Assembly: GCA_963810495.1 (NCBI GenBank) | Contig: CAWENP010000001.1 | Span: forward strand, 72,990-136,989 | Source: an uncultured delta proteobacterium | GTDB taxonomy: Bacteria > Desulfobacterota > Binatia > Binatales > Binataceae | Direction of reading: 5' to 3' | Length of the DNA: 64,000 nt | Shown: one piece after another, positions 14,299 to 35,570 of the stretch | Layout of the letters: each line of letters opens with the position of its first letter | Position numbering within the stretch: the stretch's first letter is position 1 | Translations under genes and position numbers: made by a program | The notes under the pieces: generated by a model | What the model was told of the DNA's origin: nothing | The model's input: the letters and a program-made list of their open reading frames with translations, nothing else | Database searches by the model: none

Positions 14299-14303
14299 GG
14301 CAT

Positions 14304-14909
14304 TCACCACACGACGACCGGTTTGATCTCGCCGCGTACGTTGGCGAGCGGAACCGGGCCGAAGTAGCGCGAGTCCCAACTCCGGCGATCGTTAAAACCG
14401 AACAACCACACCTGGCCAACCGCGACTCGATGGCTGCCCCACGCGACATGAGGAAGTGGACGGCCCGCGCTGTCGTGCGTTGCGACGGCGCAGCGTTTGA
14501 AACGCACGCCGTTGACTGCGACCCATCCGGGTTGGATCACGACAACGTCCCCGGCAAGAGCGCCTACGATCTTGCCAACCGGCTCCGCGTTACCAACGCA
14601 CGCGCCGGTGCGCAGATATCCGTGGGCCAGACCTTCCTGGGCGAGCGCAATCGGCAGGCAGGCAACGACCAGATCGCCACGTTGGAATTTCCCGGAGACA
14701 ACGCGATAGACCCCGACGGGAGCGGCACTGTCGGTGTCCGAAATCAGCACGCCGAACGCATTGCCGACCGCGATCAGGACCGCTACTGCAATCGCAATTC
14801 CGGCCATCGCCCCGATGGGTCCGCGCGCACCTTCCAGACGCTGTAAATGCAGGCGCTGAGCAAGCGATCCGGCGGGGTTTTCTGCCGTGCTGCACAGTGT
14901 GCCGCTCAT
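14304..14909 (-). CDS. traF: TraF-type conjugative signal peptidase (S26 family)
   Basis: Signal-peptidase I-like WDSRYFGP motif; N-terminal TM segment; position next to the relaxase as in Ti/ICE tra modules. Confidence 0.7.
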   Translation of the reverse strand: MSGTLCSTAENPAGSLAQRLHLQRLEGARGPIGAMAGIAIAVAVLIAVGNAFGVLISDTDSAAPVGVYRVVSGKFQRGDLVVACLPIALAQEGLAHGYLRTGACVGNAEPVGKIVGALAGDVVVIQPGWVAVNGVRFKRCAVATHDSAGRPLPHVAWGSHRVAVGQVWLFGFNDRRSWDSRYFGPVPLANVRGEIKPVVVW

Positions 14910-15087
14910 GACCGCCTCCGAGGGGGAAAGGCCGCGAGTTCGTTGGAGAATCCGCCGAAAATGCCGCGCCGTACCGCAGGTCCTTTATCTTGCTCTACGA
15001 ACGACCGGCCTTCCCCCCTCTCCAACTCGACCTCCAAATCCCCTCTTTCCGCGCGCCGCAAAGCGGCGGAGAAATTCCCGAAAATCC

Positions 15088-15333
15088 TCACTGCACTTTC
15101 TCCGCAGAAGGCTCGCTTGCGCGGCCATTCAGTTTCCGGCCCGGACGAGGCGCACCTTCGAGCTCGGCCTTGATCTGTTTGCAGAGCCGCCACATCGCCG
15201 CCGTAATCGTCTCGCCCAGATCGAAGCCGGCGTCTTCGGCCCGGCTGCGTAGTTGGTCGATCTCCCGTTTGAGCGCAGCTGGCAGCTTGAAGGTGATCGC
15301 TTCGCTTTCCTGTTTGCGTTTGAGAACTCCCAT
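15088..15333 (-). CDS. small ribbon-helix-helix-like DNA-binding protein
   Basis: 81 aa MGVLKRKQESEAITFKLPAALKREIDQLRSRAEDAGFDLGETITAAMWRL (beta-strand, two helices); ATG at 15333. Confidence 0.4.
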   Translation of the reverse strand: MGVLKRKQESEAITFKLPAALKREIDQLRSRAEDAGFDLGETITAAMWRLCKQIKAELEGAPRPGRKLNGRASEPSAEKVQ

Positions 15334-15365
15334 CGCACTTCTCCTTGAAAAATTGGATTGCGGAT

Positions 15366-16502
15366 TTACTTCCCGTAGGGGCCGGGGAATACGAGGTCCT
15401 GGGTGATCATCACGTCGAACTGATAGCCCGGCCGGATTTCGATCGTTGGCGGCCGATTCAATCCCTGCCCCATCATCTGCTGACCCAGCGCACCGAATTG
15501 TCCCGAGGCGGCTGAACCCGCCGTCTGGCTCGCCATCGCCCACTGATTCGGTTGGTAGTAACCGTACGGTCCGTATGTGCCACCGCCTCCGAGCGTCGCC
15601 ATCTGGCCGACCGCCTGTCCGGCGCTGATCAGGCTCATCACGGCGGCAGTTCCAAACGTTGCAAGGTAATGGTGGTCGACCTGATCGGAGAAGCCGGCGT
15701 AACCGCTCTGATCGGCCCCCGGCATCATTGGCAGATTCATGCTGGCGGTGTTGGGAAAGATGAGACGCTGCCACGCGATCTGAACGCGCTGCTGGCCGTA
15801 TGAAGACGCGTTCTGATAGGCGCCGATGAGGCGACTCCCCTGCGGGATCAGAACCGATCTGCCGGTCGCGCTGTCGAGAACGTTCTGGCTGACCTGCGCG
15901 AGAATCGGTCCGGGCAGATCCGAATTGATGCCGCTGATCAGGACTGCCGGAAGAATGCTTCCCGCCATCACCGTATACGGCGAAGCTGCGGGATGAACGC
16001 TTATCGCCGGGTTGTTCTGATCACCGGAAATATACGAGTCGGCCTGTTGTCCTTTAGCGCTCGCGATCTCGAGTGTTCCGCCACTATGAAACGCCTGCAC
16101 CATCTCCGGCGATTCGAGCGCCTTCATGTACTTCTCTTCGGCCCATTGCGCATACCGGCTGGGAGGCTTCGGCGCGCTCGGCTGAACCGGCGCCTGGGAG
16201 ATCGGCAGGGCCGGTATCGGCATGACCGTCGGTGCCGCGTGGGGCAGTGCGCCATGAGCCGCGAGGTCCTCGATTTCGCCGCGATCTCGGGCTGCCGAGC
16301 CTGGGTCATCCGCCAATTTCTGGGAAGCGGAACTTTGACTGTTTCCCGAGGACTGGACACCGAGTGCAAGCGCCACTCCTCCGACCATCGCGACCGCGAC
16401 GAAAACAACGCCGAGAAGGCGATTGAACCGGCCGCCCCCGAGGTGCTCCTGTTCCTGCTCTTCCTGTTCCTGAATCACTTCTGCGGTTGCCATGGCTGTC
16501 AC
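15366..16502 (-). CDS. trbI: TrbI/VirB10 conjugal transfer protein
   Basis: N-terminal TM, Pro-rich linker, C-terminal IPQGSRLIGAY...RVQIAWQRLIFPN...GYQFDVMITQDLVF (VirB10 signature). Confidence 0.8.
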   Translation of the reverse strand: MTAMATAEVIQEQEEQEQEHLGGGRFNRLLGVVFVAVAMVGGVALALGVQSSGNSQSSASQKLADDPGSAARDRGEIEDLAAHGALPHAAPTVMPIPALPISQAPVQPSAPKPPSRYAQWAEEKYMKALESPEMVQAFHSGGTLEIASAKGQQADSYISGDQNNPAISVHPAASPYTVMAGSILPAVLISGINSDLPGPILAQVSQNVLDSATGRSVLIPQGSRLIGAYQNASSYGQQRVQIAWQRLIFPNTASMNLPMMPGADQSGYAGFSDQVDHHYLATFGTAAVMSLISAGQAVGQMATLGGGGTYGPYGYYQPNQWAMASQTAGSAASGQFGALGQQMMGQGLNRPPTIEIRPGYQFDVMITQDLVFPGPYGK

Positions 16503-18139: not shown

Positions 18140-18330
18140 ACGACGAACACTCCTCGGACGGCCCAGTGACGGCCCGTCCTCTGTCCGTAGATTGTCCGCA
18201 CTTTGTCCGAGAACTCTTCGCGACAGGTTCCAAAAGACCCCGAAGCGAAGTGCGCGAAATCTTGATATTTATTGGGGATTCTCGGTTTGGCTTGGAGCCT
18301 GTGGCAGCATGGAACCGAATGGCATTCAGG

Positions 18331-18363
18331 AGGTCGCGCGTTCGATCCGCGTCAGCTCCACCA
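18331..18363 (+). other. tRNA 3'-end-like fragment (variable loop AGGTC, T-arm GCGCG-TTCGATC-CGCGT, acceptor 3' strand, discriminator, CCA); a 5' half could not be folded, so a candidate att-site remnant rather than a tRNA gene
   Basis: aggtcgcgcgttcgatccgcgtcagctccacca; opposite-strand translation gives the tell-tale LVELTRIERATS. Confidence 0.35.
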
Positions 18364-19967: not shown

Positions 19968-20750
19968 TTAGAACGTCCACCCGACAATCGACTTGAGAAA
20001 CACCCCGTCACTCGCGCGCGTCACTCCCAATCCGACGCCGAGATTCAGCTCGAGTTGCGGAATGAAATAGAAGTTCAGGGCCGGCACGATGAAATGCTGC
20101 TGCTCCTGCACCTTTTCCAGCGGCTGAATAGGCCCCATGTCGCCATAGTACTCAAGTGCCGGCGAAACCCAGCGGCTCAAATCATAGAGTAGCTCGCCCG
20201 ACGGCTCGAATTGAAACCCGCGATGCGTCTGCGGGCCGCTGAACGGCTTTATAAGCGGAAAGTCCGCGACCACGCGAAATGGCTTGTAGGTCGCGCCGAC
20301 GATCGGCCGCAACTCGAGCGTCAGAGGATTTTCCTCAGCCGCGCGCCGCATGTAGTCGAGCTCAATATTGCCGCCGAACTGCACCGGCCATTCGAAGGTC
20401 TGCGGAATGCCGAAGTGAACCTTCGTGCGCGAACCCGAGTATTCGTAATGTCCGTTCGAGAGCTTCGCCGTGGCGAAATACTGGCCGACCTCGAGCCAGC
20501 GCAGGACGCCATAGGTGGCCTCGAGCGTCTCGTGTATCTGATGCACATCCATCTGGCTCTTCGCCAACTCTCCGGTCGCGGTCGAGGTCGTATTGGAATG
20601 GAGTTCGAGCGTCAGATGACCGACCGGCGCGGTGTCGGTATCGTAAATCTGGATTTCGTAGAAGTCGATCGCGTGCGATGGGCGCGCGGCCGCCAGCATC
20701 GCGAGGATGCACACCGCGAGCGCGAAAACATAATGGGAAAATTTCGTCAC
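19968..20750 (-). CDS. outer-membrane beta-barrel protein of the transporter / MetA-pathway (phenol degradation)-like OMP family
   Basis: Signal peptide VTKFSHYVFALAVCILAMLAAARPSHA (GTG at 20750), alternating beta-strand pattern, C-terminal aromatic ...GWTF. Confidence 0.5.
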   Translation of the reverse strand: MTKFSHYVFALAVCILAMLAAARPSHAIDFYEIQIYDTDTAPVGHLTLELHSNTTSTATGELAKSQMDVHQIHETLEATYGVLRWLEVGQYFATAKLSNGHYEYSGSRTKVHFGIPQTFEWPVQFGGNIELDYMRRAAEENPLTLELRPIVGATYKPFRVVADFPLIKPFSGPQTHRGFQFEPSGELLYDLSRWVSPALEYYGDMGPIQPLEKVQEQQHFIVPALNFYFIPQLELNLGVGLGVTRASDGVFLKSIVGWTF

Positions 20751-21548
20751 GCGCGTCACGCAGGAAATTCTCGGCGCGATTCCTTGAATTTTGTGTCGTC
20801 GGCCGATTCCAGAACGATAGCGGACCAACCTATGTCGGCGCGTCCCCTCTCGTAAAATGGTGAGGCCGTACTCGCGCGGTTGTCAAGATATTCGGCTACG
20901 GTGATCGATCGGGAAAGTCTCAGACTTCTCGCCGCATGCGGAATTTTAAACGCGCACAAGGTGAGAGGTCGACCTGCCGGGCTCTGGCCGGCGCCTCGGT
21001 GGTCAGTGGCATCGCGACCCTGCTGGTCTGCGCGACGGGCCGGCAGACGGCGCTGGGCATGCTCGCCGCCACATTGATCGCTAAACCGCCTCCGACCGCG
21101 TTTGAAATCGGGCTGCGCGGGTTCAGCGTGCTGTTCGTGCTGACCGAGAGCCTGTGGTTTCATCGCGGCTGGCTTGAATCTCTTCTCCGCTTGCAATTGA
21201 GCCTTCGAACGAGCAGACTGCGTCGCGAGGCGTTTTGCGGAAACGCTTCTACGTGCAGCAGAAGAGGGGAGCTGCAAGATGCGCAATCGGGACCAATACC
21301 GCTGCGATCGCAAATATCCAAACGGCTTCGAATTTCGGGCTAGCGGCCTCGTGAGAGATTTCATCACCGTGCACACCTTCGGCGGGCGCGGCTCGCCCTC
21401 GTTCTAGACCTCCCGGCAAAAGAGTGGTCAGACGCTGCGATGCGTGCTGACCTTTGCGGGCCTTCGGAATTCCGTCCCCTGACGGGTGTTCTGTTGGATC
21501 GCAAAACCATAGAAATCCGACGCTAGCCGGCGGACTGGAGAGCCTTGC

Positions 21549-21635
21549 GGCTCCTCCAATCGATAGTCATCCACGGCTAGAGGACAGTCCAAGCTCTATC
21601 TACCTTAAGTGGTGGAGAGGTTGAGATCTGCCCTG
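21549..21635 (+). promoter_or_regulatory. conserved 5' leader element of DUF1111 gene copy 1 (ggctcctcca..atagtcatccacggc..gtggtggagaggttgagatctgcc)
   Basis: Shares two conserved blocks with 23313..23400 although the downstream coding regions have very different codon usage. Confidence 0.45.
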
Positions 21636-21697
21636 ACCCCCCGTCGCCGTCTGTTCAAATACAGACAAGCAGCGGGCAGATTCTAAGGAAGACAAAC

Positions 21698-23185
21698 ATG
21701 AAATATGGTATCAAGATACCAGTAGCAGTAGGACTCATCTTGCTTTTGTGTGTAGGTTCTGCTCGTTCGCAAACTCACTTTAGGAATCACACCGCCGGCT
21801 ATTCCGGAATGGGAGACCCACTTCCGGAAATAACAAACAATCCAACTGACCTGATAAACTTCGTCAATGGTCAGTTGAATATGAAAGAAATCGAGACCTT
21901 GAATCCGGCAACTAACCCCACCGGTCCAGCTGGTCAATTAGGGCCTTTATTCAATAATACATCCTGTGCAGCTTGTCATAGTAACCCTGCAATGGGAGGG
22001 GGCGGACTGAATCTATTTGAGCAACGCCTATCAACCGGAGGACCTCCAGTAAGAATCTTTGCTGTAGACAACATGCTCATGGGAGGTCCAATAATGGAGG
22101 ATACGACTGTGATCTTTCCATATGGGACAGCGGCTGCCACACTCGGTGGACAGATAGGATTGATGGATAATTCGGCCTCTACTTGTCAACAAGTTGAATT
22201 GGCGAGAGGATTTTCCTTTAAATTGCCAATTTGTATTCCAGGAACTTCTAATGATACGGGATTAACTGGAAGGCCAACTTGCATTGCTCACCGTGAGGCA
22301 TTGCCAATATTCGGAGATGGCTTGGTTGAAGCAACTGCCGATGCAACCTTTGAGCAAATCGCAGCTAGCCAGGATCCATCGATTCGCGGATCGACTCGGA
22401 TGATTGTCGAGACGAACCAGAATGGACCACCTACATCTGAAGTGTCACCAACCACTTTGGCAGCGCTAGCAGCTGCTCATGTTGGCAGATTTGGATGGAA
22501 AGATGAGCATTCTAGTCTGCTGGCTTTTGCCGGCGACGCCTATTTGAACGAAATTGGCATTACTAATGATTTGAATAAGAATCCAAACACAACTTGTGCA
22601 ATGGGTGTCACTCAGTTTGGAGTAGTCCTGCAGTCGCCTGACGACCCGGAAGATACCGTTGATTCGACCGGACGTGCAGATTTAGATCGCTTTACTGATT
22701 TCATGCGCGGATTACAGCCTCCACCCGAAGCTCCACAAACTGCTGATACCGAGGCCGGACAGCAATTATTTGAACAAATAAATTGCTCAGGTTGTCATGT
22801 CGAGTCGATTACGACTGCATCTAATCCATCTGCATTCATTCCACCGACAATCGATGGCAAGCCTCTTACTTCGACCCTTAATTCGGCGTTAACCAACGTG
22901 ACCTATCACCCATATAGCGATTTTCTGATGCACGATATGGGCAGCATGGGAGATGGAGTTAACGATAATGAATCACCTACGGATATGGGTGGACCAACTA
23001 TGATGCGTACTATGCCATTGTGGGGAATACGTGCTCGTGAAGTCTTTTTACATGATGGTCGTGCTGCCGACATAGCTACCGCGATAGTGTTGCACGACGG
23101 GCAAGGTAAGGCTGCATCGCAAGCGTTTCAGGCCTTAAGCCCTAGCGAGCAACAGCAGATTGTGGATTTTATCGAAACTCTATAA
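21698..23185 (+). CDS. di-heme cytochrome c peroxidase-like oxidoreductase (DUF1111 family), AT-rich paralog
   Basis: Signal peptide; two CxxCH motifs (CAACH, CSGCH); FGDGLVEA, GRFGWK, PLWGIRAREVFLHDGRA blocks. Confidence 0.75.
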   Translation: MKYGIKIPVAVGLILLLCVGSARSQTHFRNHTAGYSGMGDPLPEITNNPTDLINFVNGQLNMKEIETLNPATNPTGPAGQLGPLFNNTSCAACHSNPAMGGGGLNLFEQRLSTGGPPVRIFAVDNMLMGGPIMEDTTVIFPYGTAAATLGGQIGLMDNSASTCQQVELARGFSFKLPICIPGTSNDTGLTGRPTCIAHREALPIFGDGLVEATADATFEQIAASQDPSIRGSTRMIVETNQNGPPTSEVSPTTLAALAAAHVGRFGWKDEHSSLLAFAGDAYLNEIGITNDLNKNPNTTCAMGVTQFGVVLQSPDDPEDTVDSTGRADLDRFTDFMRGLQPPPEAPQTADTEAGQQLFEQINCSGCHVESITTASNPSAFIPPTIDGKPLTSTLNSALTNVTYHPYSDFLMHDMGSMGDGVNDNESPTDMGGPTMMRTMPLWGIRAREVFLHDGRAADIATAIVLHDGQGKAASQAFQALSPSEQQQIVDFIETL

Positions 23186-23312
23186 GCGCTGCGACCGTGG
23201 GTTGGGGGCATCCCACGCTAAAGCTCGGAACCCCCTTCACGCCGGAGCATCACCGTCAGACGCCGGTAGCAATCAGGTTGAAGGACCGAACATCATAGCC
23301 TGCCCCGTCTGA

Positions 23313-23400
23313 GGCTCCTCCAGTTAATAGTCATCCACGGCAAAAGCGTTCCGATCGCTACTACCACTCATACGTAGTGGAGAGGTTGGAGTCTGCCTTG
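23313..23400 (+). promoter_or_regulatory. conserved 5' leader element of DUF1111 gene copy 2
   Basis: ggctcctccagttaatagtcatccacggc ... gtagtggagaggttggagtctgcc, homologous to 21549..21635. Confidence 0.45.
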
Positions 23401-23435
23401 GGGTCGCCCTGGTGTCGATTTAATCGAACACGAAA

Positions 23436-24869
23436 TTGCAGAGAAAGAATCATATGGTTAGTCGATTGATTTTACTGTTGATCGGTATGTTGTGTATTTG
23501 GACGCAAGTCGCAAACGCGGGACCGGCCAATCGAAGAGCCAGTTCAACAACAGGAAGCCAGGCGAGCGTGCCGATAAATCTGGACGGTTTCGGTTCTCCA
23601 CTACCCGCAGTGGCGCAAAACGGATCGGATCTGACGGTCTTCGCGACCGGACAAGTGAACTTCAAGGAAGTCGAGACGCTGCCACAGGTAGGACCGATCA
23701 TGAATCGCGTATCTTGCGCGGGGTGTCATTCGCAGCCGGCGATCGGCGGCGGCGGATTGTTTATCAACGAGATCCGGGTGCGCAACAATACTCAGGCGGG
23801 TCCGGTACATATCTTCGCAGTGGACAATTTCGTGCGCAATGGGCCGCAGACCCAGGGTAACACGGCGATTTGTACGCAGGGTATCGAGGGCGAGCCGCTC
23901 GGTTGCCAAATAACCGTTCCTGGATGCTAATTATCGCCCTGTCAGCAGGAGGAGGCGGCGAAGACCACCTTTAGTACGGACCTTGGCGTCTGCGATCCGA
24001 CGAGCGTCGAATTCCACAGCGGCGGCAATTGCGTAGTGGGGCGCGCGGCGCTGGCGCTCTTCGGTGACGGCCTGATCGAAGCGGTCCCGGATCAGACCCT
24101 CGAGCAAATCGCAGAGAGCGAGCCACCTGAGATTCAGGGCACTGTGAAAATGGTGACCGAGAATTTCACCAAGGTTGCGCATGTCGGACGCTTCGGATGG
24201 AAAAATGACCACGCATTGCTGCGCGGCTTTGCCGGCGACGCCTACCTGAACGAGATGGGTATAACCAACCCTGACAACCAGGACGAAGTGAGCCAATGCG
24301 CCATCAACGAGAAGGCCTATGGGCTGGAGCTCGAGGACACGGGGGTCGAGGACACCATCGATCCGGATGGGCGCGCGGACATCGATCGTTTCTCGGACTT
24401 CATGCGCGGGCTGGCGCCGCCGCCGACCCTGCCTCAAAGCGCGTCGGCCCAAAACGGATCGAAGCTATTCACCAGCATGGGCTGCGGAGGCTGCCGTACC
24501 GAGAGCATGACCACCGCGTCAAATCCGGCATCGTTCATTCCGGCGTCCACGGGCGGCGTCTCGATCAGCCAGACGTTGAACGACACGCTCGCCAACCAGA
24601 CGTTTCATCCATATTCGGACTTTCTGCTGGACGACATGGGATCGCTCGGCGACGGCATCAGCTCGGGTGCCGCGGGACCGACCATGATGCGGACGGTGCC
24701 GCCGTGGGGCTTTCGCGCGAAGTCGCAATTCCTGCACGACGGTCGCGCGGCTGACGTCCCGACCGCAATCAAGCTGCATGACGGGCAGGGCAAGCCGGCA
24801 GCGCAGGCCTTCGAGGCGCTCAGCGCACAACAACAGTTGGACGTTGTGAATTTTCTCAATACACTGTGA
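23436..24869 (+). pseudogene. di-heme cytochrome c peroxidase-like (DUF1111) GC-rich paralog interrupted by an in-frame TAA at 23928-23930 (ORFs 23436..23930 and 24036..24869 share one frame)
   Basis: CAGCH and CGGCR(T) heme motifs; ALALFGDGLIEA, GRFGWKNDH, PPWGFRAKSQFLHDGRA; the frame is continuous apart from a single stop codon. Confidence 0.6.
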
Positions 24870-25094
24870 CGGGACGCGCAGGCGCATCGCCTGACCGGAG
24901 CGACGTCGGCGCCGAGGTTCAATAGCGAGAGTCAACCTGGCGGGCGGCGGCCGTTCAATGGCCGTCGCCCGCAGCAGAAGTCGCGCATCATGCGCTGCGG
25001 CAAAAGATTTCGCGTCAAGCCCGGACACACGGTCGAGCTCGCCGACATTGATCCCGGCTTCCAGTCCACGCTTGAAGGCGAGGCGGCGGCGTGA
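24770..25094 (+). repeat. direct repeat copy A: DUF1111 3' end + PPK2 5' end (with an extra ~85-nt intergenic piece)
   Basis: catgacgggcagggcaagccggc...gtgaattttctcaatacact and atgcgctgcggcaaaagatttcgcgtcaagcccggacac... recur at 26735..26955. Confidence 0.6.
24990..25094 (+). pseudogene. polyphosphate kinase 2 N-terminal fragment (34 codons, MRCGKRFRVKPGHTVELADIDPGFQSTLEGEAAA*)
   Basis: Near-identical to the start of the intact PPK2 at 26851 (MRYSNRFRVTPGHKVKLADIDPGFHSTHEDEAAA...). Confidence 0.5.
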
Positions 25095-25157
25095 ACTACG
25101 AGTTTTCGATCATCCCGAAGCTTCTTCATGCGCTTTGGAGAAAAATGGAGGTCTGCG

Positions 25158-25598
25158 ATGCGTGAACTCAAGCTTGACGAAGTGCGCAGGATGCTCGAGG
25201 CATCCGGACGCGAGGCCCAGCGATGCGGTAAGCCCAGCACCACGGCGGTCGTCGATTTCGGCGGCCATCTGCGGGGAATGGAGCGGCCCGAAGGCGGCCG
25301 GATCGCCAACGTCGATATCGCAATCAAAAAGGCGTGGACGGCGATCGCGTTCAAGCGACCTACCGCGATGGTGCGAGCGGTGATGATGCCCGAGGCGATG
25401 GGTTACGGATTGCAGCATACCGATGCGCGCATCTGCATGGTCGCCGGTGGTCTGCCGATCGTGGAAAACGGCGAATTCCTGGGCGCCGTCGGCGTCAGCG
25501 GCGGCACCATCGACGAGGACATCACCTGCTGCCTCGAGGCGCTCAAGGCGTGCAACTTTGCCACAGAATTCGCCGATCCGCTGAAGGCCGCCAGATAG
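25158..25598 (+). CDS. GlcG/HbpS-like heme-binding protein (DUF336 family)
   Basis: MRELKLDEVRRMLEASGREAQRCGKPSTTAVVDFGGHL...GGLPIVENGEFLGAVGVSGGTIDED; RBS ggag 8 nt upstream of the ATG at 25158. Confidence 0.65.
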   Translation: MRELKLDEVRRMLEASGREAQRCGKPSTTAVVDFGGHLRGMERPEGGRIANVDIAIKKAWTAIAFKRPTAMVRAVMMPEAMGYGLQHTDARICMVAGGLPIVENGEFLGAVGVSGGTIDEDITCCLEALKACNFATEFADPLKAAR

Positions 25599-25732
25599 GA
25601 AGCCCCGGATTCCCACTCATGCGGAACCCGAGACAGACTAAGCCAGGATCGGTCCGAAGCAATAGCAAGCGCCTAACGAAAATGACCACATCAAGCTAAA
25701 AAGAGCAGGCTGAAGCCACTGGCCAGGAGAGT

Positions 25733-26101
25733 TTAGTGGTGGCCACCCCCTCCATGGCCACCTCCTGCATGTCCACCAGAGCCGCCCGTATGCCCACCGG
25801 AGCCCCCACTACGGGCAAAGGAATGCCCACCACCCGCTGAGGAATGGTAGAAGCTCTCACTGTGGCCGGGGCCATGATGCTCCTCCCAGGAATGATGCAC
25901 GGCGAAGTTCGGTGAGTAGCCACGGGCATATATCGGCCAGCCATAGGAGTAGGGCGAGTAGCCGTAGCCCGGATAGCCGTAGGTAGGGCCGTAGTCGGGG
26001 CCCACGCATCCACCCAGCCCACACAGCGAACTCAGTATCAAGATGATTTGGATTAAGCGCAGCACGGCTAAAAATACCTCCCGGTAACATGCGTCTGCCA
26101 T
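25733..26101 (-). CDS. small secreted/lipoprotein-like Gly/Tyr/His-rich protein with a His-rich C-terminal tail (putative metal-binding)
   Basis: Hydrophobic N-terminus ...ILILSSLCGLGGC (lipobox-like), YGYPGYGYSPYSYGW repeats, C-terminus GGHTGGSGGHAGGGHGGGGHH. Confidence 0.4.
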   Translation of the reverse strand: MADACYREVFLAVLRLIQIILILSSLCGLGGCVGPDYGPTYGYPGYGYSPYSYGWPIYARGYSPNFAVHHSWEEHHGPGHSESFYHSSAGGGHSFARSGGSGGHTGGSGGHAGGGHGGGGHH

Positions 26102-26110
26102 GCGCTTCGC

Positions 26111-26611
26111 TTAGGGAGCACCCCAAGCCGGTTTGCCGTCGGGATGGTAGAAGGCCAGGCCGGGAGTCTCAGCGGCAGGAACATCAAGGCTGGTGCGCAA
26201 CTTGCCGCTTGGATCGTAAAGCCCCAGGCCTGGTGTTCCCACCGGTCCCAGCGCGAGCGTCGCACGCATCCTGCCGCTCTCGTCATAGAGATCGACCCCG
26301 GGTGATCCATTGGCGGCAAGATCAATCGTGATCCGCGTCTGGCCCTTGGCGTCGTTTAGGTTGATCCCCACCGCGCCATTGTCCCCGATACCCATCGCAC
26401 CTCTTACTTTGCCGTCGCTGCCGCGCAGCACAAACTGCTCGGCCTCAAGGCTCTGGGTCGGCGCCGTTTGGCCCATAAGGACCGCCGCACCCGTCAACAG
26501 TACTAGAGCGCCGGTCACCAGCCGCAGCCGCCGATTGGCGCGTCGAAGCTCGGCCTGTTGATCCTCCAGCCGCGCCATCCGTTCGATCAATTCGCCTGTG
26601 GGTTGTTCCAT
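26111..26611 (-). CDS. membrane-anchored protein with N-terminal coiled coil and degenerate G..G(L/I)..D..GK.R..L repeats
   Basis: LEDQQAELRRANRRL, TM segment LVTGALVLLTGAAVLMG, three repeat units (GINLNDAKGQTRITI / GVDLYDESGRMRATL / GLGLYDPSGKLRTSL). Confidence 0.4.
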   Translation of the reverse strand: MEQPTGELIERMARLEDQQAELRRANRRLRLVTGALVLLTGAAVLMGQTAPTQSLEAEQFVLRGSDGKVRGAMGIGDNGAVGINLNDAKGQTRITIDLAANGSPGVDLYDESGRMRATLALGPVGTPGLGLYDPSGKLRTSLDVPAAETPGLAFYHPDGKPAWGAP

Positions 26612-26734
26612 GTCACTTTTCTCATCAGGTCATTGAGATCATTTTCATAAGTTCGGAAGGACCGACTAACTAGTTCATCTTACCAAATGTGTGGGCAAAG
26701 CCGCCAACTGCCCGTGCGGGCGACAGCGCTCGCG

Positions 26735-26955
26735 CGGCATGACGGGCAGGGCAAGCCGGCTGCGCAGGCCTTCAGCGCGCCAAGCGCGCAACAACGGTTG
26801 GAGGTTGTGAATTTTCCCAATACACTTTGCCGCAGCGGAAGTCTCGCATCATGCGCTACAGCAACAGATTTCGCGTCACGCCCGGACACAAGGTCAAGCT
26901 CGCCGATATTGATCCCGGCTTTCACTCCACGCATGAAGACGAGGCGGCGGCCAAG
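26735..26955 (+). repeat. direct repeat copy B: DUF1111 3' end fragment (pseudogene piece) fused to the PPK2 5' end
   Basis: Aligns with 24770..24868 and 24975..25090; translation HDGQGKPAAQAF..SAQQ.L.VVNF.NTL matches the copy 2 C-terminus. Confidence 0.6.
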
Positions 26956-27696
26956 GGTGAGATCGTGACGAACCTCGAGAAGCTGCGCGCCTTGCAGTAT
27001 TTGATGTATGCCGAGAACAAGCGATCGCTCCTGGTCTGCCTGCAAGCGATGGATGCCGGCGGCAAGGACGGCACTATCGAGCACGTCATGGGCGCGATGA
27101 ACCCGCAGGGCTGCCGGGTGCAGGCGTTCAAGACGCCTTCCGCCGAAGAGGCCGCTCATGATTTCCTGTGGCGCGTACACAAGGCCGTCGGGGGCAAGGG
27201 AACGGTGACCGTTTTCAACCGATCACATTACGAGGACGTGCTGGTCGTGCGAGTGCATAAGCTGGTTCCGAAAGAGGTATGGTCCCGGCGCTACGATCTT
27301 ATCAACGACTTCGAAAAAGAGCTGACTGACGGCGGCACGCATATCCTCAAATTCTTTCTGCACATCAGCAAGGAGGAGCAGCTCGCTCGATTCAAGGACC
27401 GGCTCAACGATCCGACCAAGCAATGGAAGATCAGTGAGAGTGACTACCGGGAACGCGAGTTCTGGGATGACTACATGAAAGCCTATGAGGACGTCTTGCG
27501 AGAGTGCAGCACCGACGATGCGCCCTGGTTCATCATTCCGTCCAACCACAAGTGGTTCCGCAATCTTGCGGTTTCACAGATCCTCGTGGAGCATCTCGAG
27601 GCTTTGAAAATGGAATTCCCCAAGCCCACGGCCGATCTCAAACAGATCGAACGCCGGTATCACCGCGCGGAAAGGGAAGCGCACAAGCGCCGGTAA
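26851..27696 (+). CDS. ppk2: polyphosphate kinase 2 (PPK2 family polyphosphate:nucleotide phosphotransferase)
   Basis: LLVCLQAMDAGGKDGTI (Walker A-like), VFNRSHYEDVLVVRVH, FLHISKEEQLARFKDR, PWFIIPSNHKWFRNLAVSQIL. Confidence 0.8.
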   Translation: MRYSNRFRVTPGHKVKLADIDPGFHSTHEDEAAAKGEIVTNLEKLRALQYLMYAENKRSLLVCLQAMDAGGKDGTIEHVMGAMNPQGCRVQAFKTPSAEEAAHDFLWRVHKAVGGKGTVTVFNRSHYEDVLVVRVHKLVPKEVWSRRYDLINDFEKELTDGGTHILKFFLHISKEEQLARFKDRLNDPTKQWKISESDYREREFWDDYMKAYEDVLRECSTDDAPWFIIPSNHKWFRNLAVSQILVEHLEALKMEFPKPTADLKQIERRYHRAEREAHKRR

Positions 27697-28013
27697 AAAC
27701 TGGCCCAACGTTGGACGCTTCGCGCGCGGCGGTTACCGCTCGGGCTCGCTGAAACTGTCCGGCGTCAGCCTGAGCGGATTTGCGGCAGGATTTCATCGAA
27801 CTTGGCAGCGGAATTCAGAGACTTGGGGGTCATATCAGCGCAGCGCGACGTTGCGGTTCAGCGACGGCGGTTACGTAGGCGATCCCACCGTGCAAGGCTA
27901 GGCCCGAAATAGCAGTTCTATGCGTCACGAGACGCTGTTGGCACGTCTCGTGCCTAAGAAGGTTCCTATTTGGGCATTTTCGACGTCAGCAGGGAAGTAA
28001 GGACGGTTCGAGC

Positions 28014-28226
28014 GTGAGTCTGAAAAGCAGAATCCGCGAAGCACAGCGCGAGGCGGCCAAACGCATGAAGCGTGATACTCGGCGCAACGCCAGCGACAAG
28101 GACGGCGCTCCTATCTTCGGTTCAAAAGACGGCGTTGAAGACGAAATGAGGGAAGCGATGCCCACGGTCGAGGAAATCAGGATCGCGCTGTTGCGCAAAT
28201 CCACCAACGGAAAGAACACGCAGTGA
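28014..28226 (+). CDS. hypothetical small charged protein
   Basis: 70-aa ORF; weak. Confidence 0.2.
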   Translation: MSLKSRIREAQREAAKRMKRDTRRNASDKDGAPIFGSKDGVEDEMREAMPTVEEIRIALLRKSTNGKNTQ

Positions 28227-28254
28227 AGCATCGCCACGCCCTCGGGACTCGCTT

Positions 28255-28509
28255 GTGAGTATCATGCTCCGATTTTTTTTCCTGGTCGGCCTGCTCGGGT
28301 TTGCAGCCGTATTTCGATTGCCCGAAACCCGGCTGCTAGGCCTGATAGTGATGGACTATGCCAGCTTCTCCGTCCTCTATCGCCTCGCGCAAAGATCGCA
28401 CGCCCGAAGCTTCGCGAAAGACTGCCGGGAGCTCATCGAGACCTACAACGTCGGCGACGAACTCGCGAAAAAGCTGACCAGCTATTGGGCCAACGAGCGC
28501 CGGCAGTGA
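28255..28509 (+). CDS. hypothetical small membrane protein
   Basis: 84-aa ORF with two hydrophobic segments. Confidence 0.25.
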   Translation: MSIMLRFFFLVGLLGFAAVFRLPETRLLGLIVMDYASFSVLYRLAQRSHARSFAKDCRELIETYNVGDELAKKLTSYWANERRQ

Positions 28510-28608
28510 AGCCGGCCTCGATCGCGCTCGCGCAATGACGGCCGCCGCGGACGGATTTTTTCCGAAGCTCATGGTCCGGTTCCTCAAGTGACGCGGGCCT
28601 CCCACGAA

Positions 28609-29582
28609 CTAGAACTGCAGCTGCAACTCGCTTAACAGCACGCTTTCATCGGGGCGGTCATGGCCGTTCGCAGCGCCGTAGCGAAAACCGGTATGCGCGT
28701 AGTCGAACTGCATCTTCACGTTGGGATTCAAATACCAGTTGACGCCGAGCGTCCATTCGAAAGCCTCGAGCGCCGAGGTCGACGAACTGGCAAACCCGTA
28801 GTTGTAGACATCACGATCGATCAGCAGCTGGTCGATTCGCGCCGCCAACTCCCAGGCGCCGTCTTGTAAGTGCTGTCGATGGTCGTCGACCACTCGTCAC
28901 CATAGGTGCCAGCGATGCCGAAGCCGAGCTGGCGGACGTACTCCAGCGAGGTGTCGGCGAAGGGATGGACGAAGATACGGCCGGCGAAGTCCTTGCCGTC
29001 GTTGTTGTCGCTATCGGCAGTGGCGGTATTGTCCGGCGTGCCGTTGAAGAGCCCCAACGCGTAGTCGACCCGCTGGCAAACAGATTGCCGTGAAGGTCAA
29101 AGCCCAGGTCCCGGTCGGGCACGAGGTCGGACGGCAGTGCGCGCTCGACAAACTTGAGCGCACGGTCCTCTTCCAATCTTTCGAGGCCCACGGGTTCCCT
29201 GAATTTACCCACAAGGAGCTGAAATTCTTGCCAGTAATGAATGTCGGCGTAGGCGTCCTCCAGTGTGGTAGTACCCTGACCGAAATCCATCATGAAGCGA
29301 AAGTCATAGTACTTGGCGACCGTGCCTTAGAAGTACGGGCGCAGACGGCGAATTAGAAATTCACTGCCGCTTGGCTTCGGCTCTGAAAGATAGAAACGCC
29401 CGTCGGCCTGCATATAGCCGCCGATACGTCTCCAGCGCTTCGACTTTCTGCTTTAGCTGACCGATCTCCTTCCGGAGCTCGGCTTGCGACTCTATTTTCG
29501 ATTGCGCCAATACCGTACGTGATCCAAGTAACCCGATCCCGGCCGCCGCTCTGAGCGAGTATTTGGATTTCTGCGTAAGCAT
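28609..29582 (-). pseudogene. phosphate-selective porin O/P family gene broken into at least 3 frames
   Basis: N-terminal signal/coiled coil (29361..29582), middle (28811..29293) and C-terminal ...FDYAHTGFRYGAANGHDRPDESVLLSELQLQF (28609..28893) in different frames. Confidence 0.55.
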
Positions 29583-29766
29583 CTTTCGCGACCGCGGTCG
29601 GTATCGGTGCGGCGCTGAGTCAAACCATCGCCGGAGCCATCGTTCATCATTTCGGCGATCGGGCCGGATTCTTGTTCCTGGCCTCCGTGGCCGCAGCGGC
29701 CCTGCTGATGTTGTGGTTGTTTATGCCTGAAACCCTCAAATGAAAGGCGGCCGTAGATGTTACTGG

Positions 29767-30752
29767 TCAGCGTATAAAAGGATCCCGCGCACGGGCAGCA
29801 CGCTGAATCCCAGGAGCAGCAACGGTTTTCTGCCCCAGGTGCCCGCGGTGCGGCCAGCCCACGCGGCGATTTAGGGTGATCGTGAACTGCGTGGTCACAA
29901 CGCAGGCCGACATGAACATCATCGAACTGCGGCCCCTGCCCTTCGCCAGCATCTCGCCGAGCAGCGGCAGCATCGCCGCGTTGGCGAAGTGAAACAGCAC
30001 CGCGCAGCAGAGAAAGATTACGAGCGGACGATCGCGCAGCAGATACCGGATGCTGGCGCGCCGATCATCGTCGTCCGCGCCGGCGCCTCGCGCGAGTTCG
30101 TAGTCGATCTCGTCGGGCCGGATGAGCGTCAGCGACAGGATCGTCGGAATCGCGAGCAGTGCGACAAAGAAAAGACCGCGCGGTTGGAGATGAAATATCC
30201 GACGAGCCCGATCGTCACGGCGGCGGCCACGTTGCCGGCCGAATTGAAGGTCTGATTTCGGCCCTGGCGGCGATTGAACAGCCTGTGCCCCACCAGGCCG
30301 AGCGAGATCACCGCGATGGCGGGCATGAAGAAGCTGGACATCGCGCCGATGAGCGCCTGGGTCGTCATCACGGTCCAGAACGACGGAAAGAACGCGATTA
30401 GGAGCGCTCCGAGCGCCAACGCGCACACGCCCAACGCGACGAGCGCTCTCTTGGACCTGAGCCGGTCCACCAAACCGCCCGCTGGAGTTTGCGACACGAT
30501 ACCGGCAATTCCGCCGATCATGAGCGCCAGCCCGACGCGCTGTTCGTTCCAACCATAGCCGGCAAGATAGATCGCGAGGAACGGCCCGACGCCTGACTGG
30601 ACGTCGGCAAGCAGAAAATTGAGCCAGTCGAGTCCGCGCAGGCTGCGGGCGGAAGGCCGCCTTTCTTCGTTCAAGCCGGCCCCGGCAAGCGCCTTGTCAC
30701 CCGTCTCCAGCCCGCTCGCGGAAAAACCCGTCTCTCGCTGCGTCATTCGCAA
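29767..30752 (-). pseudogene. MFS transporter split by a frameshift (N-half 30129..30752, C-half 29767..30552); an additional plus-strand MFS C-terminal fragment at ~29583-29752
   Basis: Multiple TM helices with an MFS-like pattern in two overlapping ORFs. Confidence 0.5.
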
Positions 30753-33287: not shown

Positions 33288-35570
33288 CTACTTCATCACG
33301 CGACGGGCGAAGCCTCTGCGCCGCCGCCGGGTCTTTTCCTCTTCCTTCTCGCGCTTTTCGACGACGTCGATCATTGCGAGCTGGCAGTTGTTCTTCCGAT
33401 CGCCGGGCAGCCGCACGTAGCTGCCATCGGAACGCATCTCCCACGCCGCGTGATTGGGCTTGAGCTGCAGGTCGAACACCGCCCGCAGTTCCTTGCGCAG
33501 CGTCGGGTCCTCGACCGGCGCCACAGCCTCGACCCGGCTCTCCAGGTTGCGTTTCATGCAATCGGCCGAGCCGATGAAATATTCCTCCGCGCCGCCGTTG
33601 CGAAAATAGTAGATGCGCCCGTGCTCGAGGAAGCGCCCGACGACGCTCACCACGCGCACGCTTTCTGAGAGGCCGGGGATTCCCGGGCGCAACCGGCAGG
33701 TGTCGCGTACGATCAGATCGATCTTCACTCCGGCCTGCGCGGCGCGGTAGAGCGCGCGCGTGATGTCGACGTCCTCGAGCGCGTTCATCTTCATCTGGAT
33801 CAGGCCCGGCGAGCCGGATCGCTGGAGTTTGACCTCGCGATCGATCTTCTCGAGCAGGGCCCGCTTGAGCAGGGCCGGCGCCGGCAGAATTTTTCTGAAC
33901 GTGCGGCCGGCGCGATAGCCGGTGGTGAGAAAATTGAACAGCTGCGTAAGGTCGGCTCCGATCGCGTCGTCGTTGGTCAGCAATCCGAAGTCGGCGTACA
34001 GGCGCGCGGTGCCCGCGTGATAGTTGCCGGTGCCGATATGCGCGTAGCGGCGCAGCCCGTTGTAATCCTGGCGCACCACCAGGATCACCTTGCAATGAGT
34101 CTTGAGTCCCACCACGCCGTAGGTGACGTGGATGCCGTATTCCTCGAGCTGCTCGGCGAACTGGATGTTGGCGGCTTCGTCGAAGCGCGCCTTGAGCTCG
34201 ACCACCACGGCAACCTGCTTGCCGTTGCGCGCCGCGTCGCACAGATATCCGATCACTTCCGAATCGCTCGAGGTGCGGTAGAGCGTCATCTTGATCGCCC
34301 GCACCTTGGGGTCCTCGCTGGCCTCGCGCAGAAAGCGTCCGACCGAGGTCGGAAACGATTCGTACGGATGCATCAGCAGAATCGAGCCGGCCTCGCGAAT
34401 CACGTGAAAGATGTTGCGCGAGGGCGCGAGACGCGCGTGGTCGGCCGGATGGTGGGGTGGATCGTGCAGCGCCGGGTTATCGACGGAGGTCAATTCCATA
34501 AGATCGCGCATCGCCAGCATCCCCGCGTCGATCTCGAACACGTCGTCGTGCTCGTCCAGGCCAAGCTCGGCCGCGAGCATCCCGCGATGCGCGGGATTCA
34601 TGCCGCGCACGGCCTCCATCCGGACGATCGGCGCGAAGCGACGGTCGCGCAGCTCGGACTCGATTAGCGCCAGCAGATCGTCGGCCTCGTCCTCGTCGCG
34701 CTCCGTGTTGGCGTTGCGGGTGACGCGGAAAAATTCGTAGCCGTCGATCTTCGCCTCGGGAAAGAGCAGGTCGAGGGTGTGCGCGACCACGTCCTCGAGT
34801 GGGACGAAGCGCCGGGTGCCGTCGACCCGCAGAAAGCGCGGGATGCCGAGCCCGACCGGCACCTTGACCCGCGCCAGCGACGGCTCGGTGTCGTCGGGGG
34901 CGCGCAACGTGACCAGCAGATTCAGCGAGAGGTTGGAGATGAACGGGAACGGATGCGCCGGGTCCATCGCCTGCGGCGTCATCAGGGGAAAAATGTTGCG
35001 CAGATAGTACTCGCGGATGGCGGCCTGCTCGGCCGGGCTGAGCTGGTCGAAGGCGAGTATGTGGATGTCGGCTTCGGCAAGCCGCTTGAGCAGATCGGGC
35101 AGCAGCGCGCGCTGCTCCGCCTCGAAGGCACGCACCTCGGCCAGGCACTCCGCGATCTGCTGCTGCGGCGTGCGCCCATCGTCGGTCAGCTCCTGCATCC
35201 CGGCGATCGCCTGCTGCTTGAGGCCGCCGATCCGCTTCATGAAAAATTCGTCGAGGTTCGACGCGGTGATGGCCAGGAACTTCACCCGCTCGAGCAGCGG
35301 ATTGCCCTCGTCGAGCGCCTCGGCAAAAACGCGCCGGTTGAACGCGAGCCAGGTGAGTTCGCGATTGAGGAACAGTTCGGGCGCTTTGAGATCGGCGTCG
35401 ATGCGGACCGCTGCCGCCGCACCGCCATTGACGCCGTGGGCCTCCGTGAGAGGCCCGTCACCGTTGGCTACCTCGACGCCGGCCGCCGGAACGACGGCCG
35501 CCTCGCGCGCCATCGACGGTTCGAGTGAGAGCGACTGGAGCGGCTGAAAGGGCTCTGTTTGACTCGCCAT
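33288..35570 (-). CDS. ppk: polyphosphate kinase 1 (start probably downstream of the first listed Met)
   Basis: FLNRELTWLAFNRRVFAEA...KFLAITASNLDEFFMKR...; two PLD-like HxK regions; 760-aa intact ORF. Confidence 0.9.
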   Translation of the reverse strand: MASQTEPFQPLQSLSLEPSMAREAAVVPAAGVEVANGDGPLTEAHGVNGGAAAAVRIDADLKAPELFLNRELTWLAFNRRVFAEALDEGNPLLERVKFLAITASNLDEFFMKRIGGLKQQAIAGMQELTDDGRTPQQQIAECLAEVRAFEAEQRALLPDLLKRLAEADIHILAFDQLSPAEQAAIREYYLRNIFPLMTPQAMDPAHPFPFISNLSLNLLVTLRAPDDTEPSLARVKVPVGLGIPRFLRVDGTRRFVPLEDVVAHTLDLLFPEAKIDGYEFFRVTRNANTERDEDEADDLLALIESELRDRRFAPIVRMEAVRGMNPAHRGMLAAELGLDEHDDVFEIDAGMLAMRDLMELTSVDNPALHDPPHHPADHARLAPSRNIFHVIREAGSILLMHPYESFPTSVGRFLREASEDPKVRAIKMTLYRTSSDSEVIGYLCDAARNGKQVAVVVELKARFDEAANIQFAEQLEEYGIHVTYGVVGLKTHCKVILVVRQDYNGLRRYAHIGTGNYHAGTARLYADFGLLTNDDAIGADLTQLFNFLTTGYRAGRTFRKILPAPALLKRALLEKIDREVKLQRSGSPGLIQMKMNALEDVDITRALYRAAQAGVKIDLIVRDTCRLRPGIPGLSESVRVVSVVGRFLEHGRIYYFRNGGAEEYFIGSADCMKRNLESRVEAVAPVEDPTLRKELRAVFDLQLKPNHAAWEMRSDGSYVRLPGDRKNNCQLAMIDVVEKREKEEEKTRRRRRGFARRVMK

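Follow-up and report, generated by a model that had tools for sequence, protein, structure and literature searches.

The analyzed window, a 64,000-nucleotide stretch of a contig from an uncultured member of the Binataceae, was compared with a set of 130 fetched loci (referred to by L-numbers). The assignments of the DHOR, GlcG/HbpS-like and PPK2 genes made in an earlier note on this DNA were confirmed by Pfam, and the locus contains the following features:

21698-23185, forward strand: DHOR#1, PF06537 (Pfam)
23436 to about 24869-24871, forward strand: DHOR#2, di-haem oxidoreductase / putative peroxidase, PF06537 (Pfam)
24757-25094, forward strand: repeat copy A, in which the 3' end of DHOR and a PPK2 head of 34 codons are separated by a 97-nt hairpin spacer
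24745/24757-24871, forward strand: DHOR part of copy A, the last ~115-130 nt of DHOR#2
24872-24968, forward strand: spacer of copy A, 97 nt, a GC-rich hairpin with a 13-bp stem, GGCGGGCGGCGGCC-GTTCAAT-GGCCGTCGCCCGC
24969-25094, forward strand: PPK2 leader of copy A (CCGCAGCAGAAGTCGCGCATC) and PPK2 head fragment, 89% identical to 26830-26951
25095-25131, forward strand: joint of uncertain origin, 37 nt, ending in TTCTTCATGC
25132-25608, forward strand: glcG copy, 477 bp (CDS 25158-25598), GlcG/HbpS-like, PF03928 (Pfam and nucleotide identity)
25609-25720, no strand: spacer between the glcG copy and the HisRich-RepProt block, 112 nt
25721-26690, reverse strand: HisRich-RepProt block, with the same ends and 70-90% nucleotide conservation in L092-L104
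25733-26101, reverse strand: probable lipoprotein with a Tyr/Gly-rich core and a His/Gly-rich tail (lipobox LGGC visible in the sequence)
26111-26611, reverse strand: RepProt, a membrane-anchored beta-hairpin-repeat protein, with ~80 nt of its own upstream region within the block
26714-26955, forward strand: repeat copy B, a DHOR tail fragment joined straight onto the real PPK2 start
26714-26829, forward strand: DHOR tail fragment of copy B, a pseudogene piece 84% identical to 24760-24871
26830-27696, forward strand: intact PPK2 (CDS 26851-27696) with the copy B leader, PF03976, TIGR03709 subfamily

As had been noted before, the DHOR|PPK2 junction occurs twice, in the form of two collinear repeat blocks. 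Block 1 (24760-24871 vs. 26721-26832) extends over 112 nt with 84% identity (BLASTN E 3.5e-27), and block 2 (24969-25090 vs. 26830-26951) over 122 nt with 89% identity (BLASTN E 4e-39); their start-to-start offsets lie 100 nt apart because copy A contains a 97-nt spacer that is absent from copy B. The repeats are thus 84-89% identical across >230 nt, with a longest exact stretch of ~24 nt. When the whole 64-kb window was searched for direct repeats (≥50 nt long, no more than 8 kb apart), only the junction copies and the DHOR#1/DHOR#2 paralogy were recovered, and the 27-nt leader motif was present exactly twice (0 expected). The DHOR tail of copy A runs on from DHOR and the PPK2 head of copy B runs on into PPK2, with the stumps facing the insert.

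The 34-codon length given earlier for the PPK2 head of copy A was corroborated (ATG at 24990, TGA at 25092-25094), and no significant PPK2 similarity was detected past 25094 in the two segments examined (25091-25160 and 25599-25732). The DHOR piece of copy B lacks an ORF context, its former stop codon now reads TGC, and it is fused to the PPK2 leader without the 97-nt spacer; left of ~26714, no DHOR similarity was found in the window, L088, L091 or L123. Both the 34-codon "PPK2" ORF and the DHOR tail are non-coding pseudogene fragments. No Rfam match to structured RNA was obtained at E ≤ 1 across 20500-28500, no sigma-70-like promoter was found in 24600-27000, and terminator-like matches near the fragments were no better than those of shuffled sequence. 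A function of the DHOR stump as a promoter was considered and found no support in constraint, the stump diverging about as fast as four-fold sites. Loci in which a divergent gene lies opposite PPK2 are the only ones to have kept this stump. The 97-nt spacer, confined to copy A and conserved in position in the alignments of all lineages, was also evaluated as a dispersed REP/MITE-like element, which was rejected, with no further copy in the window or the 130 loci. The 37-nt joint aligned weakly with the junction of DHOR tail and leader (p about 0.015-0.04; scores as high were reached by 2.8% of random pieces of the window), and the exact 9-mer TCATGCGCT lies at its boundary with the glcG block; from its sequence, this joint together with the next 4 nt may represent a third, decayed copy of the junction and leader.

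Regarding the flanking genes, DHOR#2 is interrupted in this strain by a premature stop codon (TAA at 23928-23930, the one stop of the in-frame translation), a position that reads CAA/CAG in L002, L070 and L087, and shares 85-86% nucleotide identity with the intact 470-aa orthologues of L070/L086/L087. PPK2 showed 89-91% amino acid identity with its orthologues in L070, L086, L088 and L119, and relatives at ≤80% identity were located in other genomic contexts. A widespread DHOR-PPK2 adjacency was rejected, as none of the 80 genome loci of PPK2 relatives at 57-69% identity had DHOR, GlcG or the HisRich-RepProt pair nearby (0/80), and relatives at 76-80% also occupied other contexts.

The enclosed genes have homes elsewhere. 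The glcG block, extending from ~26 nt 5' of the start codon to ~10 nt beyond the stop codon, shared 91-94% nucleotide identity over exactly this span with the operon glcG of other Binataceae contigs (L124-L130), which sits in the order Fer4/CCG - FAD_binding_4 - GlcG - CMD. The native home of glcG in other Binataceae is the glcF-glcD-glcG operon, and the local GlcG is a displaced gene of this glycolate oxidase operon, not a peroxidase partner. The motif ATGC(GC)T is common to the PPK2 start and the region upstream of native glcG, which fits microhomology at the glcG joint. The 112-nt spacer that follows was present only in window-type loci and had no significant similarity to PPK2, DHOR or other fetched loci. 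The HisRich-RepProt block was detected in L092-L104 in at least four differing genomic contexts with constant ends, and no repeats flanking it were found in these other contexts. Neither of its ORFs (25733-26101 and 26111-26611) belonged to a Pfam or NCBIfam family; for the beta-hairpin-repeat protein, the AlphaFold model (pLDDT 78) matched an OspA-like single-layer sheet in Foldseek (E 3e-5). Synteny with L099 through a DUF1329 gene was rejected, the proteins being just 56% identical and thus paralogues.

The arrangement of the window was observed in six independent assemblies (two ENA, NCBI GCA_049581525.1, two Logan and one JGI contig), and is therefore no assembly artefact. Three architectures were distinguished among the related loci:

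Type I (window, L001-L005, L091): DHOR-spacer-PPK2head'-glcG-HisRich-RepProt-DHORtail'-PPK2
Type II (L119 complete; L088, L105 and L123 partial): DHOR-spacer-short PPK2 stump-SulfT-DUF6691-HisRich-RepProt-DHORtail'-PPK2
Type III (L070, L086, L087, L122): DHOR-spacer-short stump-SulfT-DUF6691-PPK2

SulfT-DUF6691, a YeeE/YedE-like transporter pair, occupies the place of glcG in type II, from which glcG is missing, and stands alone in type III. The A-side PPK2 head has persisted in all lineages, if only as a stump, and sister lineages ~10% diverged have orthologous B fragments. On both outer sides, upstream of DHOR as well as downstream of PPK2, the sequence was collinear between lineages and held no extra copy of the enclosed genes; the locus gains and loses gene-sized pieces from one lineage to another, and two different blocks are joined on their left to one short stretch of the PPK2 start, CATGCG. 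Since homologous exchange between a type I and a type III locus could not yield type II, a type II-like state would have been an evolutionary intermediate. Neither an uninterrupted DHOR-PPK2 junction (empty site) nor a donor lineage was found among the 130 fetched loci.

These comparisons do not sustain the earlier proposal that the three enclosed genes form one accessory module of heme peroxidases: glcG is a copy of an operon gene, HisRich-RepProt is an independent block, sister lineages either combine this pair with SulfT-DUF6691 on its left or lack it, and no functional link to the peroxidases was found. The more general suggestion of a segmental duplication or recombination plus insertion held in part, as the junction is duplicated and brackets genes foreign to the site; what brackets them is not recent, and they did not arrive as one three-gene unit. 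Relatives with the same arrangement and no repeats, the outcome named in the note as contrary to its suggestion, did not turn up; the relatives do have the repeats.

In order to place the duplication relative to the splitting of lineages, the fragments were analyzed in NJ trees. All B-type DHOR fragments clustered together, separate from all functional tails, with those of L002, L091, L088, L119 and L123 being orthologous and forming one clade that has derived sites and the spacer-less fusion in common, and the A-type PPK2 stump was sister to all functional PPK2 heads. Judging from this clade of fragments from different lineages, the duplication is not recent. Divergence of PPK2 at four-fold sites between lineages was 0.20-0.24, and fragment distances, based on about 115-125 sites only, were 0.13-0.21 for A versus B and 0.07-0.19 for B versus B, values that fit a duplication dating to the lineage split or somewhat before it, with near-neutral decay afterwards. 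Synonymous divergence of RepProt between lineages was three-fold lower than that of PPK2, indicating that recombination has blurred the history, so that a simple tree-like order of events may be wrong.

Sequences related to mobility were searched for at the locus. No recombinase or IS was present among the called genes and ORFs that lie between the repeats or next to them, in the window and about 15 related loci, and transposases, site-specific integrases and excisionases were likewise absent from these loci. The sole rve-domain gene seen belonged to an unrelated native glcG locus (L130). Inverted repeats in 23000-29000 were at most 24 nt long and 75-83% complementary, and none occurred at both ends of a block; moreover, IS and transposon target duplications are short (2-14 bp), in contrast to the >200 bp of the junction duplication. 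An att site was not found, as there was no short identical core with a one-sided gene-end duplicate, and a dif/Xer-type site at the leader was rejected from sequence, the likeness being loose, to the XerC half only and not to the XerD arm. A tRNA-Ala integration site lies 5-8 kb from the locus, and is occupied by a conjugative element in this strain and not in L001/L002.

Several known systems resemble the locus in part. As in integron cassette arrays, gene-sized, promoter-poor units alternate at one site beside a fixed downstream gene and a short sequence, here the PPK2 leader, recurs ahead of successive units; unlike integrons, the locus showed no IntI-like ORF nearby, no attI or attC hairpins, no Rfam or structured element in 20500-28500 and no hairpin common to the block ends, one block is reversed and has its own upstream region, and what recurs is part of the adjacent gene. 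Small variable segments known as microdiversity loci (Touzain et al. 2010, PMC2884548) are likewise short stretches of gene size that some related genomes have and others lack, with conserved sequence on either side, and direct repeats border about 10-18% of them, yet the repeats described here exceed 200 nt, consist of gene fragments and are common to ~10% diverged lineages rather than to strains of one species. At the e14 prophage (and phage 21) of Escherichia coli K-12, the functional end of icd lies on one side and a diverged pseudogene fragment, icdC, on the other (PMC13626634). The window shares with that case a functional end and a diverged fragment that bracket the insert, and recombination between the copies could remove it; e14, however, has a site-specific integrase and duplicates one gene end, whereas here both the tail of the upstream gene and the head of the downstream gene are duplicated, and the 1.6-kb insert has no recombinase and differs in content between sister lineages.

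Taken together, the locus is probably a rearrangement scar with no active element, produced by one ancestral insertion with target duplication and followed by turnover of its content. The order of gains and losses that we infer would begin with the ancestor of a small Binataceae clade, in which DHOR and PPK2 were adjacent and co-oriented and probably formed an operon. A single event would then have placed the HisRich-RepProt pair, present elsewhere in related genomes, into this junction, duplicating ~250-350 bp made up of the terminal ~115-140 nt of DHOR, the PPK2 leader of 22 nt and at least the initial ~105 nt of PPK2. Intact DHOR would thereby have come to be followed by a PPK2-head stump (copy A), and intact PPK2 to be preceded by a DHOR-tail stump (copy B). 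Subsequently, the lineage of the window would have gained the 477-bp glcG copy between the stumps, a sister lineage would have gained the YeeE/YedE-like transporter pair and lost most of the PPK2 stump, and in a third lineage both the HisRich-RepProt pair and the DHOR stump would then have disappeared. The stumps drift at about the neutral rate, roughly that of synonymous sites. Against this reading stand an empty site that is itself deduced, as no relative with an uninterrupted junction was found, a spacer difference that demands a diverged donor or an extra insertion/deletion, and the common CATGCG joint of two blocks, which purely random breakpoints do not predict.

Campbell-type insertion-duplication consists of a single crossover between a circle and a homologous segment, needs no dedicated recombinase, yields homologous segment, insert and homologous segment in direct order, is used in insertion-duplication mutagenesis and is seen in natural transformation. 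Direct repeats of one contiguous segment also flank the present insert, each contiguous with its native flank, and the copies differ as donor and recipient would; unlike the usual case, no donor circle was found, the homologous segment spans a gene junction, and the event lies far back and has since been overlain by further gains and losses. We favour, as founding mechanism, a circular DNA with a diverged copy of the junction that would have entered by one homologous crossover, which would also explain the 97-nt spacer in copy A but not in copy B, and place replicative template switching (MMBIR-like) as a close second. "Duplication plus insertion" and "recombination with a diverged copy of the junction" are both viable as formal descriptions.

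That a single template switch (MMBIR/FoSTeS-like) generated duplication and templated insertion in one step seems unlikely for the locus as a whole. A collapsed fork would have copied the DHOR tail and PPK2 head, moved to the HisRich-RepProt (possibly also glcG) locus and returned upstream in DHOR, giving exactly a duplication around templated inserts; the enclosed pieces being copies of genes with homes elsewhere, and the microhomology at the glcG joint, agree with this, but at least glcG must have arrived separately, given the type II loci without it, the junctions are too old for microhomology to be read reliably, and the spacer difference calls for another step. A similarly low probability is assigned to a tandem duplication of DHOR-PPK2 together with neighbouring HisRich-RepProt, after which large deletions would have cost the first unit most of its PPK2 and the second most of its DHOR, and the superfluous set of genes in between would have gone as well. 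In form, the locus does consist of partial paralogous units in direct order, the A/B divergence is compatible with old paralogy, and gene-sized gains and losses are demonstrable in the region. This history nevertheless needs one duplication and at least three deletions, one of them erasing a second HisRich-RepProt(-glcG) copy without trace; neither such a copy, including in the conserved regions upstream of DHOR and downstream of PPK2, nor full-length paralogous units were found, and the occurrence of the HisRich-RepProt block with the same ends in unrelated contexts is better explained by an inserted block than by a resident neighbour.

Less probable still is descent from an e14/icd-like element integrated site-specifically at the DHOR 3' end or the PPK2 start, an element that would have brought its own copy of the target and kept the genes intact, the displaced host gene ends persisting as fragments while the integrase and most cargo were later deleted and replaced. 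The nearby occupied tRNA-Ala site and the common joint of two blocks at the palindromic PPK2 start are in line with such an element, whereas the lack of integrase, excisionase or other mobility genes in or beside the insert in about 15 related loci, a duplication covering both sides of the junction, enclosed copies of Binataceae chromosomal genes, atypical as cargo, and a leader that, as read from its sequence, bears no likeness to the XerD arm of dif-type sites argue against it. Finally, and very improbably, the palindromic PPK2 start (GCGCAT-C-ATGCGC) could be a recurrent capture site for gene-sized chromosomal copies (glcG, the YeeE/YedE-like pair and the HisRich-RepProt pair), with the leader re-created each time; such a process could also have carried along, as a passenger, the HisRich-RepProt pair, whose ends are constant in four contexts. 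If true, this would constitute an integrase-less, cassette-like gene-capture slot in Binatia with some mechanism of site preference behind it, for instance breakage provoked by a hairpin, or template switching, and the locus would gain in importance only if a real mechanism of this kind underlies the repeated joint at the PPK2 start.

The insert is a patchwork of relocated housekeeping genes in an old, decaying scar common to several Binataceae. As it stands, the locus offers a well-resolved case in which a probable operon junction of an uncultured soil phylum would have been opened once and then have become a slot for relocated core genes, with the gene-end stumps dating the opening, and can serve as a worked case for studies of genome evolution and as an annotation guide to pseudogene fragments and displaced GlcG.

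The junction between the 3' end of a di-haem oxidoreductase/putative peroxidase gene (DHOR) and the 5' end of a PPK2 gene is present twice in the window, where the earlier note had placed it, within the following set of genes.

Genes at the duplicated DHOR-PPK2 junction
21698-23185, DHOR#1 (PF06537)
23436-24869, DHOR#2 (PF06537)
25158-25598, GlcG/HbpS-like protein (PF03928)
25733-26101, minus strand, HisRich, a His-rich probable lipoprotein ORF, no family
26111-26611, minus strand, RepProt, a membrane-anchored beta-hairpin-repeat protein ORF, no family
26851-27696, PPK2 (PF03976/TIGR03709)

A repeat search resolved two blocks of direct repeats, one covering the DHOR tail (24760-24871 and 26721-26832; 112 nt, 84%) and the other the short leader that precedes PPK2 together with the PPK2 head (24969-25090 and 26830-26951; 122 nt, 89%), with BLASTN E values of 3.5e-27 and 4e-39, respectively. 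The blocks of the two copies were collinear in a MAFFT alignment, in which copy A was longer by 97 nt (24872-24968), a spacer separating the stop codon of DHOR from the PPK2 leader. As had been claimed, the PPK2 head of copy A is truncated, running from the ATG at 24990 through 34 codons to a TGA, and copy B is a peroxidase tail fragment fused to the intact PPK2, with ...AATACACTTTG joined straight to CCGCAGCGGAAGTC...ATG without the spacer. Across the whole window, the only further direct repeats of 50 nt or more within 8 kb came from the DHOR#1/DHOR#2 paralogy, and the 27-nt leader occurred exactly twice (0 expected). The same arrangement was recovered from two ENA assemblies, NCBI GCA_049581525.1, two Logan assemblies and a JGI contig, and is therefore not an assembly artefact.

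The content between the copies was composite. Homology of glcG to other Binataceae was confined to 25132-25608 (91-94% nt identity), which adds only about 26 nt upstream of the start codon and about 10 nt downstream of the stop to the coding sequence. Those genomes have glcG within a Fer4/CCG - FAD_binding_4 - GlcG - CMD operon, the glycolate-oxidase-type setting to which GlcG owes its name. The HisRich-RepProt block (about 25721-26690) recurred at 70-90% nt identity between a luciferase-like oxidoreductase and nuoG/nuoF (related loci L093, L095, L098, L099), between an SDR and DeoC-glucokinase-G6PD (L097), adjoining hydantoinase B (L094), and in further contigs. Its ends were fixed, one lying 13-16 nt past the HisRich stop (...AAACTTTCCTGGCC) and the other some 80 nt upstream of RepProt, and were the same in at least four unrelated contexts across Binataceae (L092-L104); neither flanking repeats nor mobility genes were found with it in these other contexts. 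Its behaviour is that of a roaming pair of genes. No origin was detectable by similarity for the spacers at 25095-25131, 25609-25720 and about 26691-26713. Since glcG and HisRich-RepProt have separate homes elsewhere, the three genes are not one unit: of the duplication plus insertion proposed earlier, the duplicated junction with its insert stands, while the insert as a single three-gene module does not, and no functional link was found between the three genes and the peroxidases, next to which they had been described as an accessory module.

Close homologues of GlcG and RepProt carry the source names Candidatus Binataceae or Binatus, and the RepProt family was found, without a name, throughout Binatia. 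RepProt is predicted to fold into a long N-terminal helix including the membrane span, followed by nine beta-strands (pLDDT 78), which in the model form a repetitive single-layer hairpin sheet; the top PDB matches were OspA variants (E 3e-5). HisRich has a lipobox (LGGC), a core rich in Tyr, Gly and Pro and a His/Gly tail, a composition from which periplasmic metal binding might be guessed.

Three architectures were distinguished among related loci.

Architectures of the locus (nt identity where noted)
Type I (window, L001-L005, L091; 97-99.7%): DHOR - spacer - PPK2 head stump - glcG - HisRich - RepProt - DHOR tail stump - PPK2
Type II (L119 complete; L088, L105, L123 partial; about 85-90%): DHOR - spacer - short stump - SulfT - DUF6691 - HisRich - RepProt - DHOR tail stump - PPK2
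Type III (L070, L086, L087, L122): DHOR - spacer - short stump - SulfT - DUF6691 - leader - PPK2

SulfT-DUF6691 is a YeeE/YedE-like transporter pair, and the short stump of type II consists of the leader, ATGCG and a few further bases. Type III lacks both HisRich-RepProt and the DHOR stump, and types II and III have no glcG. An uninterrupted DHOR-PPK2 junction was not found in any locus compared, and PPK2 relatives at 80% aa identity or less did not adjoin DHOR. The type III locus L070 also contains, at 11636-15480, a sulfate/thiosulfate ABC transporter cluster (a CysA-like ATPase and two permeases), inserted between the porin and the small ORFs that follow PPK2, next to the YeeE/YedE-like pair; this sulfur-uptake theme is missing from the window.

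In neighbour-joining trees, the B-type DHOR fragments of the window, L002, L091, L088 and L119 formed a single clade, separate from all functional DHOR tails, and the A-type PPK2 stump was sister to all functional PPK2 heads. The B copies also had derived sites in common (CCAAGC, ACGGTTGGAGG and TTTTCCC), as well as the identical spacer-less fusion. Taken together, these results argue for a single duplication that preceded the split of the lineages and was not followed by gene conversion. Divergence at four-fold sites of PPK2 between lineages was 0.20-0.24, and the stump distances, rough values from about 115-125 sites, were 0.13-0.21 for A vs B and 0.07-0.19 for B vs B. The stumps thus evolve approximately neutrally, and the age of the duplication roughly equals or somewhat exceeds that of the radiation of these lineages. 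Four-fold-site divergence of RepProt (26111-26611) to the type II lineages was three-fold lower than that of PPK2 (0.06-0.08 vs 0.22), and L091, elsewhere 97% identical to the window, fell to 86-91% in 26400-26550; both patterns point to recombination tracts and a mosaic locus.

A tRNA-Ala(GGC) gene is found 5-8 kb upstream of the locus. Positions 1 to about 18316 belong to a conjugative element (ArdC, RepB primase/TrbL, VirB4, VirB11, T4 coupling protein, relaxase, VirB10, VirB9, VirB8) that abuts the 3' half of this tRNA gene (18317-18363); the near-identical strains L001 and L002 have a whole tRNA-Ala and no element at that site. The VirB8-10 stretch was also found at 92% identity in another Binataceae contig (L124). 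A segment of about 1.2 kb in L001 (16957-18172; a 245-aa ORF, no Pfam match), missing from the window at 19654/19655, is another strain-level indel between tRNA-Ala and DHOR.

DHOR#1 (21698-23185) is intact, low in GC (46-49% vs about 60%) and 49% identical in aa sequence to DHOR#2; the window, L001 and L003 carry it, but L070 and the 99.5% identical strain L002 do not. Two conserved boxes flank it (21546-21635 and 23310-23400; 80-84% repeats), and L002 has a single box made of the left part of the left copy and the right part of the right copy, which would fit either a Campbell-type gain or a deletion between boxes. The boxes are found ahead of DHOR in L070 as well and may represent 5' regulatory sequence that has been conserved; they had no Rfam match, and covariation was assessed from three sequences only. 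In strains with the low-GC DHOR#1, a single nonsense change cuts DHOR#2 (CAA to TAA, 23928-23930; CAA/CAG in L002, L070 and L087), and this co-occurrence may reflect xenologous replacement in progress. A different lesion is seen in L002, whose DHOR#2 appears to be frameshifted around codon 67, perhaps through an assembly error. Porin_O_P (phosphate-selective porin), an MFS transporter and PPK1 are whole in L002 (474, 365 and 760 aa) and fragmented in window-type assemblies (window 28600-30750 and about 33300-35570), through either regional decay in the window strain or indel errors of long-read assemblies.

Formally, the locus has the structure T - insert - T, where T is DHOR tail, leader and PPK2 head. 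Types I and III share nothing between the stumps, so that type II cannot be obtained from them by homologous exchange, and a type II-like or type I-like state is thus ancestral. In the simplest history, HisRich-RepProt would have been inserted with duplication of T, the glcG piece gained later in the window lineage, SulfT-DUF6691 gained in the sister lineage, where the PPK2 stump was for the most part lost, and HisRich-RepProt and the DHOR stump lost in type III. For the founding event we favour a single crossover with circular DNA bearing a diverged junction copy, because this would require no dedicated enzyme and yield exactly the product seen; copies A and B, with and without spacer, may then have differed from birth. 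A template switch would give the same product and would be in keeping with the enclosed pieces being copies of genes that reside elsewhere. Tandem duplication followed by several deletions is less parsimonious, and the remnant of an e14/icd-type integrative element (PMC13626634) would be a further source, but no recombinase was found in about 15 loci.

Two different blocks have their left joints at the same few nucleotides of the PPK2 start, within the palindrome GCGCAT-C-ATGCGC: ...CATGCG/ATC before SulfT and TTCTTCATGCGC/TTTGGAG before the glcG piece (native glcG upstream region, GAATGC--TTTCGAG). The 41 nt before the glcG piece aligned weakly to the spacer-less junction (p about 0.015-0.04, post hoc; 2.8% of random window pieces aligned equally well) and may represent either a decayed third copy of the junction or a chance match. 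These joints and this alignment suggest, with low probability, that the PPK2 start acts as a "capture slot". Overall, the locus is best read as the scar of an insertion-duplication whose content later turned over, a known type of event of which it adds an example, of modest significance, from an uncultured phylum.
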